DNA of 64,000 bases, taken from assembly GCA_036172245.1 (NCBI GenBank), contig JAYWIR010000023.1, positions 2,852,001-2,916,000 on the forward strand, in the 5' to 3' direction. Made by a program: the position numbers and the translations under genes. Each line of letters opens with the position of its first letter. The stretch's first letter is position 1. The stretch is from Raillietiella orientalis. Taxonomy: Eukaryota. Shown here piece after piece: positions 55,691 to 58,600 of this stretch. Under the pieces are notes generated by a model that made no database searches, was not told where the DNA came from, and saw nothing but the letters and a program-made list of their open reading frames with translations.

Positions 55691-58600
55691 GTAAGTCCTT
55701 TCTGTTTCGTCCCTGATCCCCACCCCACCCTCCATTCCCCACCCCCGCGCCCCGCTTTACTCCGCCTCACCTCCACACTTCCCCGTGCACTCTCATCTCT
55801 TCCCCCACTCACCGCCTGTCCCGTCACTGGAATGAAACAGGGGACGAGGACCCCCCCACCCGTTTCGCCACCCGCTCTTCGCCGCTCGCGGGAGCCAATC
55901 CCGCTCGCGCGCGCGCGCGAGGACCCGAGGCTTTTGGGAGGAGGGAAGGAGGACGACTCGCGTCGCGTTTCCGGGAGACCGGGATTTTGCATTGGAGCTC
56001 TTCCTCCCTCTTCCCCCTCCATCCTGTATCTGGAGTCAACCGGGCAGAGTGGTCGCGGTCAGCGCCCTCCCGGAGACACCACCCCCTCCCTTCCTTCCCA
56101 TCCACCTCCGGAACCACTGCGGCGAAGTCCCTCCCTCCCCCAGGAGGAAAGAGGCAGGACAGGGATCTCACCGTCCAGCAGCCGGCTTCCCCTTTCCACG
56201 CCTCACCTACGACTCCCTGTGGGTCTCGAGAGCGTCCTCGGAGATCCCTTGGCTCTTCTTCCTAAGACAGCCTCCCCGAGTGCCGGATTGCCTGTGGCAA
56301 ATGCGGGGAAGCGGGAAGGAGCAAGGCTTACTTCCTGTCGCTCTTCCTCCCCACTCGCTGTGGGTCCTCCCCTGCCTGCCGGATGGCGTGGCACTCGTGC
56401 GTGGGTGAATTGTCCGGAAAGGTGACCGAAGAGGAGAGAGGGGGGAGGGGCAGGGTAGTCGACGGGCGACCCCTCCCCTCTCCTCCCCTCCTTCGCGTCC
56501 TCCATCGCAAACGCTTCCCAGCTGTTCTTCCTGGAAGCTTCCCTGTAGCCTCGAATAGGTCCTCGAAAAACGCACCTGCAGATGTTATCCTCCCTGACCC
56601 TCCCTGATTTCCCCCCGACCCACCCTTCCGTGCTCTGCAAACCGTCCTCTTTCCAGTCAGAGGGTGATCCCTGCCTCCCTCTCCGGTCGAAAGAGGCTCC
56701 CGGTGGGTGCTCCCCTGCTGCCTCGCTCCGGGAGGGTGGGAATCAAGTAACCGACTTCCTAGGTGGTTGGAATGGGGACGTCTCGCCAGGAAAGGGGGAG
56801 ACCGTGTTCACAGTCTTCCCGGTTCGGTCTCCTTGCAGGCGTCGGATCCCGACCCGCCGCTGCGTCTTCTGCGCTTCCCCCCTCCCTCTCCAGCCCCTTC
56901 GTTTCCCACAAGCTGTTGAGGTTGGTTGACGCTCTTCCCTCCAGGAGGGCATTTCCATGCCCACTGTCCCCAGGGACCAAGTCCGTCTCCACCCTACTCC
57001 CTCCTCCCGCTCCCGGAGCTTAGCGTCCGCTGGCTCCTCCGGGACCGACGAGCCGTCCTGTCCAGCTGGGAGGGAGAATAGGGAGCTGCCCCCGGATGCT
57101 CCTGGAAACTTGCGCCGCGAACTCCACCCTTTCCTGGCTCCTTCGCGAGCCGGTGGTCTTCGTTGCCACTTGCGCGTGCGTGCGTGTCCGTGGTGATGGA
57201 GGAGGGGATTGTGCAGCAGCGACTCGCGGTACCGAGGGAGGAGGAGGAGGAAGGGTAGGGCATGGACTGGTGAGAAGGGAAGAAGACGGGAAGATGTGAC
57301 GGCGGCTTGTACTGAAGGACCACGTCCGATCGGCGCGCGCGCGTTGGGGCGTTCCTCCCTCCCCGGTCCGGCGGGACGCTCCGCTAACCTCCTGTTTTTA
57401 CAGGCAGATGTTCCCCCAGTTCAAGGTCAAAGTCTGCGACCTAGACCGGAAGGCCAAGTACATCCTGTTGATGGATATCGTGGCTGCTGACGACTGCCGC
57501 TATAAATTCCACAACAGGTACAGCGAGCGAGCGAGTGGGGTGGGGGTGGGAGGGGGGGGGAAGGAGGGAGGAAGGAAAGGAGGGGGGAAGAAAAAGAGGG
57601 TCGCTTCCGGGGGTCGGTCGGATGTCCAGCGTGCCGCGAGACTCTCCTTGGCGCTTTCTCCCTCCCGTCCCGCTCTCCCAGCCTCTTTCTCTTTCTCTCC
57701 CCGTATCTCCGTCTCCCTGCTTCTCTTCGGCCGCCGCCGCCACCGCTGCTTCCAAAGTCCTCCCCCCGCCCCACCCTGCCCCTCCCCTCCCTCCCTCCCT
57801 CCCTCCCTCCCTCCCTCCCCGCCCGCCCGCCCCCGCCTCCCCCCACGGCAGCAGCGTGCGCAAGGGTCCTGCTGCTGCAGCATCTCTGAACCTCTTCGTT
57901 TTAGGCGCATGTTTCCTGCGTTCAAAGTGAGGGTTTCCGGTCTGGACAAAAAGTCAAAGTACATCCTCCTAATGGACATTGTCCCCTCGGAGGACTGCCG
58001 CTATAAGTTTTACAACAGGTATCTCATGGCAACGAGGAGCGGGGGGAGGGAGAGGAAAGGGGGAGGGAGCCAAGGGAGCCGCTGGCACCGCGCGGGAGAG
58101 CGTGGGGGAAGGGGGACGAGGGCGCGCCGAATTCCCGGAACGCCCTCGAGGGAATCGGGACCTTCTCGCGTTTTTCCGGGAAGGGGAGGAGGAACGTCTC
58201 GCGGGTTTGCACGCCGGCGAGTTTCTCTGGAGGGGACCCCGCGTCGTTGCAGAGGGGAAAGGACAACTCCACAGAGGAGACACGCCCTGCAGTCCCCTCT
58301 CCCCCTCGCGGCGGCCGATTTTCCTATGGTGAGCCGGCGGGGGGAGGCGGAGAACGGAAGGAGGGAAGGGATGGATTTTTCTTTTTTTTTTTTTTCTCTC
58401 TCCCCTCTCTAGAAGAAGGGGGGAGGAGGTGGCTCTGCGCGCACGTGCAGGTGCGAGCGGGTGGGCGTCGCGCTCCCGCTGCTGCTGTCTGCCTAACCCG
58501 CTCCTGCTCTCCAGCCACTGGATGGTAGCGGGAAAGGCGGACCCGGAAATGCCCAAGAGGATGTACATCCACCCGGACAGCCCCGCCACAGGAGAGCAGT

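Follow-up and report, generated by a model that had tools for sequence, protein, structure and literature searches.

A tandem pair of T-box exons in the omb/Tbx2/3 gene of Raillietiella orientalis, probably a copy of an old arthropod exon pair

Introduction

Can a single T-box gene supply two DNA-binding domains by choosing between two copies of one exon? The question is raised by a 64-kb stretch of DNA from Raillietiella orientalis (assembly GCA_036172245.1, contig JAYWIR010000023.1, positions 2,852,001 to 2,916,000; this whole stretch is called the window here, and positions are counted from its first letter), which holds a single omb/Tbx2/3 gene on the plus strand (55365-62374) with two consecutive 114-nt exons, named 2a and 2b, in its T-box region. 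The omb/Tbx2/3 genes are central in patterning, with roles in wings, legs, eyes and the dorsal-ventral axis, and to our knowledge omb biology is known almost entirely from Drosophila. A sequence-only reading of the window had proposed that 2a and 2b are old duplicates, spliced in a mutually exclusive manner, from which one gene makes two transcription factors. Here we compare the pair with proteins and DNA loci of relatives and find it probable that 2a and 2b are a copy of an ancient arthropod omb tandem exon pair, with the pre-mRNA most likely taking one exon or the other.

Results

Exons 2a and 2b encode the same piece of the T-box and are old duplicates

The coordinates proposed earlier for the two exons, their length, their phase (2/2), their AG acceptors and GTA donors and the presence of the same residue in 26 of the 37 whole codons were all reproduced (Table 1). 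Each copy is preceded by a pyrimidine tract and an AG (..TGTTTTTACAG/G for 2a and ..TTCGTTTTAG/G for 2b, the slash marking the exon boundary). Against the Pfam T-box profile PF00907, 2a covers positions 27-63 (E value 2.6e-10) and 2b positions 27-62 (E value 5.5e-11), and since these positions coincide, the two exons encode one and the same T-box piece; residues 84-108 of exon 1 correspond to profile positions 1-25, and exons 1, 2a, 2b and 3 all exceed the 26-bit cut-off of the profile. The likeness of 2a and 2b is not due to chance, because in a permissive tblastn search of the window they find each other at an E value of about 2e-17, as against 0.07 or worse for the next best match. No third copy of the exon was found by this search, which covered the whole 64 kb.

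Without a single indel or stop codon, 2a and 2b are identical at 80 of 114 nt (70%). When 38 codons are compared, including the split Arg codon that the exons share, 14 are the same, 13 are synonymous and 11 specify a replacement, and the earlier count of different codons at 13 of the 24 identical non-Met residues was recovered exactly. The proportion of synonymous sites that differ (pS) is 0.95 (21.0 of 22.2 sites), compared to 0.15 for non-synonymous sites (pN; 13.0 of 88.8 sites), and because silent sites are saturated while the protein sequence was kept, the separation of the two copies must have been long. We conclude that the duplication is old and that both copies are under purifying selection, as the sequence-only reading had claimed; this is borne out by arthropod omb at large, where both exon classes recur in an unchanged order. 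An assembly duplicate, which had also been dismissed before, was rejected on the grounds of the 70% DNA identity and the saturated synonymous sites, and a recently dead copy was ruled out by the saturated pS with the protein sequence held. The pS and pN values may be compatible with one copy having fallen out of use very recently.

The same two exon classes occur in the same order in arthropod omb proteins

Among omb/TBX2/3 proteins, the segment encoded by exon 2 falls into two sharply separate classes, a Q-type (RQMFPQ...), to which Drosophila omb belongs, and an R-type (RRMFPA...), which starts with the consensus RRMFPA[YF] and is near vertebrate TBX2/3 and chelicerate sequence. The window has the order of its relatives, with 2a opening RQMFPQ and 2b opening RRMFPA. 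This arrangement is shared by omb genes of insects, a shrimp and a brine shrimp (Artemia). A protein search with 2a revealed 43 proteins that contain a Q-type and then an R-type segment, and the Q-type is the upstream copy in every one of them. The two segments are directly joined in 33 of these proteins (from Lepidoptera, ants and wasps, beetles, a termite, bugs and the shrimp Penaeus monodon), of which 19 bear "isoform X" names (Lepidoptera, Hymenoptera, an aphid and a shrimp) and the remaining 14 are hypothetical, unnamed or otherwise unnumbered, two of them being named OMB protein, partial. The other 10 have in-frame spacers, implying 42, 48, 54, 60, 60, 63, 72 and 111 nt and, in two odd models, 90 and 210 nt, a list that is biased because only stop-free, in-frame spacers can show up in proteins.

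Counted by hand from annotated proteins rather than genomes, with no myriapod among the proteins, the taxon distribution is Q only in Diptera (53 of 53 proteins with a readable segment), R only in chelicerates (14 of 14 proteins) and, in Hemiptera, R-only forms together with one Q-only form (Cacopsylla). The simplest reading of these sequences would be that R is the ancestral exon, that a tandem duplication on the stem lineage of the pancrustaceans gave rise to Q, and that either copy was later lost or degraded in some lineages.

Some of these proteins have peculiarities of their own. In P0254, whose R exon is like that of Halyomorpha, a shortened, degenerate Q-like stretch (..RISGLDPKDKLDIVASDNFRHKFRN) stands directly before the intact R exon, a hint that in some bugs the Q copy is decaying. 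Two tandem Q/R proteins, P0133 and P0253, have a far diverged R exon (RRLFPA..DIVPVD.C) with an Ala-to-Pro change in common with 2b, and the spacer implied by P0133 is only 42 nt. Six proteins of aphids and phylloxera (P0132, P0171, P0178, P0179, P0181 and P0183) have KFHNRYKNRWMVAGK after the R exon, not KFHNSRWMVAGK, a three-residue extension (junction Ser to Arg) that looks as though splicing had moved to a donor 9 nt further 3'. In spiders at least two omb/TBX2/3-like genes are present, all of the R-type (P0017 and P0227 in Argiope; P0049, P0214 and P0251 in Parasteatoda). Finally, in the Q-only protein P0222 of Heliothis virescens, KHGF and TILNS are separated by 49 additional residues at the exon 3/4 junction, probably because an intron was retained or one exon too many was predicted.

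Isoforms and DNA loci of relatives point to either/or use

Named isoforms with only the Q-type or only the R-type segment are common. Outside the segment, 685 of 689 residues agree between Schistocerca americana (Q) and S. gregaria X2 (R), compared to 25 of 38 within it; for the mayflies Cloeon dipterum (X2, Q) and Neocloeon triangulifer (X3, R) the counts are 611 of 652 and 29 of 38. As both pairs are near-identical outside the segment, they reflect an exon swap in one gene, not two genes. The R exon of S. gregaria X2 (P0061) is oddly diverged (..RVTDLNKK..AADVCRFRFHN) in a protein of which the rest is 99.4% identical to that of S. americana, and it has the same Gly-to-Asp change as 2a. By extension from these relatives, 2a and 2b would be used as alternatives in R. 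orientalis too.

We also scanned metagenome contigs by exon-peptide alignment and kept 80 loci, of 149 relatives among 427 pattern matches. Eight of the 80 have Q and then R on one strand (one with its Q exon cut by the contig end), in 114-nt exons with CAG/G acceptors (ACAG/A at the R exon of locus L011) and AACAG/GTAY donors as in the window. Seven of these loci, in which the R peptide is identical to the termite R exon and the Q peptide differs at one or two residues, have a spacer of 48 nt between the exons; it measures 55 nt in the eighth, the mayfly-like locus L011, where both exons are present and their peptides are identical to the mayfly isoforms. At locus L009 the introns on the two sides of the pair measure over 3.8 kb and some 2.9 kb. 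The other 72 loci, 48 of which have at least 600 nt on both sides, are single-copy, and by their peptides they look like vertebrate, annelid-like and other non-arthropod Tbx2/3 genes.

A minimum distance between donor and branch point is known from alpha-tropomyosin and from short Drosophila introns: when the two are too close, both ends of the intron are not occupied at once. By analogy, an intron of 48-55 nt would leave about 30 nt between donor and branch point, too little under this rule.

Evidence against a shared, alternatively used pair, and the rival explanations

A number of findings weigh against the view that 2a and 2b belong to the arthropod Q/R pair and are used one at a time; they concern the kinship of 2a, the possible joining of the two exons, changes peculiar to each copy, and the intron between them, and they are set out here together with the explanations that they favour.

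The kinship of 2a was assessed with an exon tree of 61 peptide rows (35 distinct) and 38 columns, in which the Q and R labels are not independent of the tree data because they were assigned by residue 2. Using all columns, 2a and 25 other Q-type rows lie on one side of a branch with support 98/92, and 2b falls in the unresolved R-type remainder. Removal of columns 2 and 6 instead places 2a among the R-type rows, along with the exons of an ostracod and of one contig, although a tree that keeps the Q group together is not rejected (approximately unbiased test, p-AU 0.2). Moreover, 2a has Q2 and Q6, where 2b has R2 and A6, but not the full Q signature (M7, F9, L24, Y32), since it reads F7, V9, M24 and C32 as R-type exons do, so that its placement in the Q class depends on Q2 and Q6 together with order and boundaries.

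Both the missing signature residues and the tree without columns 2 and 6 would fit a duplication independent of the insect Q/R pair, with Gln 2 and Gln 6 convergent, in which case alternative use would still be possible. We consider such an origin unlikely: the Q marks stand on the upstream copy, which is also so in each of the 43 tandem cases, relatives have identical exon boundaries and GTA donors, the change from Ala to Gln at residue 6 takes two base changes, and the all-column tree gives one Q group. In addition, the intermediate form of 2a (RQMFPQF...) recurs in the ostracod Cyprideis torosa (P0177) and in the contig protein P0142, which gives a graded series from Q2 and Q6 (ostracod and window) through the addition of M7, F9 and L24 (Penaeus) to that of Y32 (Artemia and insects). 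The exon closest to 2a is that of P0142 (90% identical), and those closest to 2b are beetle-type R exons (89-90%). On the strength of two shared derived residues, the upstream position, the identical boundaries and the occurrence of the intermediate form elsewhere, we are fairly confident that 2a is orthologous to the insect Q exon, as judged from sequence.

The second set of findings bears on the possibility that 2a and 2b are spliced in together, which would create a 38-residue tandem repeat inside the T-box. The 33 public models mentioned above, from other arthropods, join Q straight to R, and the intron between 2a and 2b in the window is 387 nt long and of the GT..AG kind, with normal-looking signals and a good acceptor. 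Joining is in frame, with Arg recreated at the junction, and since 114 is a multiple of three, joint inclusion and joint skipping alike stay in frame and escape nonsense-mediated decay. The exon frame is open from 57300 to 58412 (370 codons), through 2a, the whole 387-nt intron and 2b into the next intron, and retention of the 2a-2b intron is thus also in frame; this long open frame is probably a by-product of the GC-rich, stop-poor composition. Nonsense-mediated decay cannot, therefore, police the exon choice, because inclusion, skipping and even intron retention keep the frame. Against joint inclusion stand the corresponding intron of just 48-55 nt in eight loci, the spacing of 42-111 nt implied by read-through open reading frames, the many annotated isoforms with one copy only, the T-box profile and the solved T-box chains, which hold the segment once, and the nature of the joined models, 14 of which are unnamed or hypothetical predictions. 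Taken together, these points make it very improbable that the tandem form is the regular product. AlphaFold2 gave the joined butterfly model P0112 a mean per-residue confidence (pLDDT) of 40.6 and a predicted template modelling score (pTM) of 0.22, and a single-exon scorpion control, run with the same 30-sequence alignment, was equally poor (45.8 and 0.24). The earlier claim of mutually exclusive use finds good, if indirect, support in the comparison with relatives, by their single-class isoforms and by the spacers of 48-55 nt in 8 of 80 loci, and weakened by the 387-nt intron here and by the 33 joined models.

Third, each copy has lineage-specific changes at very constant positions, G13D in 2a and P28, S29, E30 and Y37 in 2b. 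Such changes, namely Asp at the near-invariant Gly of SGLD in 2a and four unusual residues in 2b, would fit the view that only one exon were still used here and the other were a relic heading for loss, as has seemingly happened in some insect lineages: all 53 dipteran proteins are Q only, P0254 has its degenerate Q-like stretch before an intact R exon, and the R exon of S. gregaria is unusually divergent. In the same vein, the derived residues of 2b occur in none of the best 150 of 884 matches from a search of 1.84 billion representatives, the best identity being 90%. We nevertheless regard a relic as improbable, given that 2a and 2b both keep an open frame, an AG acceptor with a pyrimidine tract and a GT donor, that pN is only 0.15 with pS saturated, and that the same unusual cluster of G-runs follows both donors. 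Asp at the same Gly is also found in the single-copy loci L025, L026, L029 and L059 (KVKVSDLD/SDLE, non-arthropod type) and in the Schistocerca R exon, and because these carry it, the change is evidently tolerated and need not disable 2a.

The last set concerns how an alternative use of 2a and 2b would be enforced. With an intron of 387 nt, most of which is made up of the G/A-rich tract and the C/T-rich tracts of Table 1, the short-intron block cannot act here, so that exclusivity, if strict, would need a mechanism that does not depend on length; no branch-point-like motif was found near the 2a donor. Such exclusivity may be controlled by the weak GTA donors in combination with clusters of G-runs, or by complementary C/T and G/A tracts. 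Both donors (GTACAG and GTATCT) are without G at +5, as are four donors seen in related loci. The first 100 nt after each of the two alternative donors contain 8 G-runs, compared to 0, 2, 2 and 3 after the four constitutive donors, and only 0.31% of the 100-nt windows in the 64 kb reach 8. G-runs enhance weak donors in vertebrates; we know of no demonstration of this in arthropods. In addition, 2a and 2b are each preceded by a C/T element and followed by a G/A tract, the two being mutually complementary, and in a partition-function fold of 57300-58530 the C/T tract at 57757-57844 divides its pairing between the tract following 2b (36 expected pairs), which would loop out exon 2b, and the one following 2a (21). 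On the other side, the predicted fold of the 387-nt intron is no more stable than that of shuffled sequence (z -0.72; 25 of 100 shuffles as good), and G/A tracts (22) and C/T tracts (29) are common in the window; the similarity between the flanks of 2a and 2b is marginal, with 17 of 500 shuffles reaching the score on each side. We give little weight to control of the exon choice by RNA pairing, because the tracts are of low complexity and common in the window, the fold shows no excess and nothing similar is present in related loci.

Predicted effect of the exon swap on the T-box

The segment encoded by 2a or 2b aligns to residues 32-69 of the TBX3 chain 1h6f_A. The account of human brachyury in PMC11828899 describes DNA contacts via the A-B loop, the c-c' loop and the C-terminal helices, no more than two hydrogen bonds made directly to bases, one of them from R69 to guanine 5, and a role of Y88 in P300 binding. 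Residue counting along GRRMFP...AMY suggests that R69 is the earlier of the two Arg residues in GRRMFP, which is encoded by the split codon before both exons, and because the first base of either exon completes the same codon, this guanine-reading Arg would be constant. Exon choice would then yield, from one gene, two transcription factors that differ at 11 of the 38 residues starting at this Arg. The residue after the split Arg is Q in 2a and R in 2b, the residue at +5 is Q and A, respectively, and the nine further differences lie at exon positions 10, 12, 13, 16, 18, 28, 29, 30 and 37. It is a reasonable inference that the isoforms would differ in DNA affinity, half-site spacing or dimer contacts.

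Layout of the gene in the window

The assignment of the gene to omb/Tbx2/3 follows from the alignment of exons 1-5 and a C-terminal motif to arthropod omb, and from TBX3 (1h6f) being the best solved chain. Exon 1 is 54-56% identical to arthropod omb N-termini and exon 3 is 89-96% identical to six arthropod proteins. A protein search with exon 1 produced 99 matches, nearly all of them named and every named one omb or TBX2/3, the best at 54% (scorpion, crab) and 50-53% (mayflies), in a collection without a close relative of the organism. The last exon lies in an open frame from 61364 to 62371, with the C-terminal match to arthropod omb at 62033-62371.

No other T-box gene was found in the 64-kb window, minus-strand open reading frames over the gene region gave no Pfam match, and 55000-62600 gave no Rfam match. 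A (GCT)x18.7 repeat at 55238-55293 lies just 5' of the start codon, and a (GCG)x10 repeat at 61826-61856, inside the last exon, encodes poly-Ala. The GC content of the window ranges from 36% (20-24 kb) to 68% (52-56 kb), and the omb gene is situated in a block of 64-68% GC.

Table 1. Coding exons of the omb/Tbx2/3 gene and intronic tracts around exons 2a and 2b (window coordinates)
Feature	Position	Strand	Remarks
Exon 1	55365..55690	+	From ATG (MAYHPF..) to ..ITKSG plus 2 nt of an Arg codon; ends ..GGGCG at 55690; strong donor G/GTAAGT
Exon 2a, Q-type, upstream copy	57404..57517	+	114 nt; weak donor CAACAG/GTACAG
G/A-rich tract	57529..57603	+	8 runs of at least three G; starts 12 nt past the 2a donor
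C/T-rich tracts	57658..57702, 57757..57844	+	Second includes (CCCT)n; complementary to the G/A tracts after 2a and 2b
Exon 2b, R-type, downstream copy	57905..58018	+	114 nt; weak donor CAACAG/GTATCT
G/A-rich tract	58026..58081	+	8 runs of at least three G within 100 nt; starts 8 nt past the 2b donor
Exon 3	58515..58668	+	Preceded by ..CTCTCCAG; donor TTC/GTGAGT; T-box profile positions 65-113
Exon 4	59981..60127	+	From translation and alignment to arthropod omb
Exon 5	60302..60378	+	From translation and alignment to arthropod omb
Last coding exon	61390..62374	+	Stop codon 62372-62374; 5' boundary a best guess (candidate acceptor 61390)

Discussion

The system closest to 2a and 2b is the Q/R exon 2 of arthropod omb (bifid), as seen in Schistocerca, Cloeon/Neocloeon, beetles, Lepidoptera, Penaeus and Artemia, which belongs to the same family, occupies the same T-box position in the same order and consists of the same 114-nt, phase-2 exons with the same AACAG/GTAY donors. 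The window differs from it in the spacer (387 nt, compared to 42-111 nt in relatives), in the weak Q form of 2a (Q2 and Q6), which is like that of the ostracod, and in the four private changes of 2b. The pair is therefore less singular than the sequence-only reading had supposed, because it is a feature of a whole lineage and not peculiar to this genome. That reading had also drawn a parallel with the separate vertebrate genes TBX2 and TBX3, which holds as an analogy only: both vertebrate genes are R-type, so the Q/R split does not match the TBX2/TBX3 split.

Exons 2 and 3 of alpha-tropomyosin are a mutually exclusive pair enforced by a short intron or a distant branch point. Further precedents with two homologous, neighbouring exons, as here, are exons 4a/4b of OGDH (PMC7969005) and exon 17 of Dscam (cited in PMC6071210). 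The spacer of 48-55 nt is a property of the termite-like and mayfly-like loci only; compared to short-intron clusters, the window has 387 nt and no branch-point-like motif near the 2a donor, and the mechanism cannot be assumed to carry over. A likeness also exists to the docking-site/selector systems of competing RNA pairings described for Dscam, 14-3-3zeta, Mhc and srp (PMC6071210), in that a similar G/A tract begins 8 to 12 nt after each window exon, with complementary C/T sequence upstream, but the window tracts are of low complexity and the termite-like and mayfly-like loci have no such tracts.

Alternative exons in or beside a DNA-binding domain are familiar from E12/E47 of TCF3 and from TBX3+2a. 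As in these genes, the proposed use of 2a and 2b would give one gene different DNA-binding modules by splicing. TCF3 is among the clusters in the human atlas of mutually exclusive exons (PMC5740500), the main text of which contains neither 'T-box' nor 'TBX', and Drosophila serpent (PMC8844375) and MEF2 (PMC3904989) are further transcription factors with alternative exons in or beside the DNA-binding domain. None of the four is a T-box exon substitution, TBX3+2a being an insertion where a swap is proposed for the omb pair. Mutually exclusive tandem exons that alter the DNA-binding parts of transcription factors are thus already known, and the Q/R pair itself is already visible in public gene models. 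A search of the titles and abstract openings of the open literature, with subscription journals and supplements outside its scope, retrieved no paper that describes exons of omb, or of any other T-box gene, as alternative or mutually exclusive, and the omb Q/R exon switch is probably undescribed.

More tentatively, and with rather more doubt than confidence, one may see in the pair a very old, possibly pancrustacean-wide splicing switch in the T-domain of a single Tbx2/3 gene that exchanges the residues beside the guanine-reading Arg and the beginning of the first beta-sheet and so makes two factors with different preferences for DNA sites or dimers, of which flies would have kept only the derived Q form, and of which the window would hold an early, little-diverged Q together with a replacement for the short-intron block.

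For researchers of T-box genes and arthropod patterning the pair is of interest on several counts. If flies kept only Q, work on Drosophila omb would have covered one of two ancestral isoforms, and, if most other arthropods make two T-domains from this gene, knock-downs and expression studies outside flies have pooled two factors. Isoform choice could then add a hidden level to target selection, and the two exons would amount to a natural experiment on the T-box residues that tune the binding of DNA or of partners. The pair would also clearly exemplify a second DNA-binding variant that a transcription factor gained by duplication of an exon rather than of a gene, with repeated later losses of either copy.

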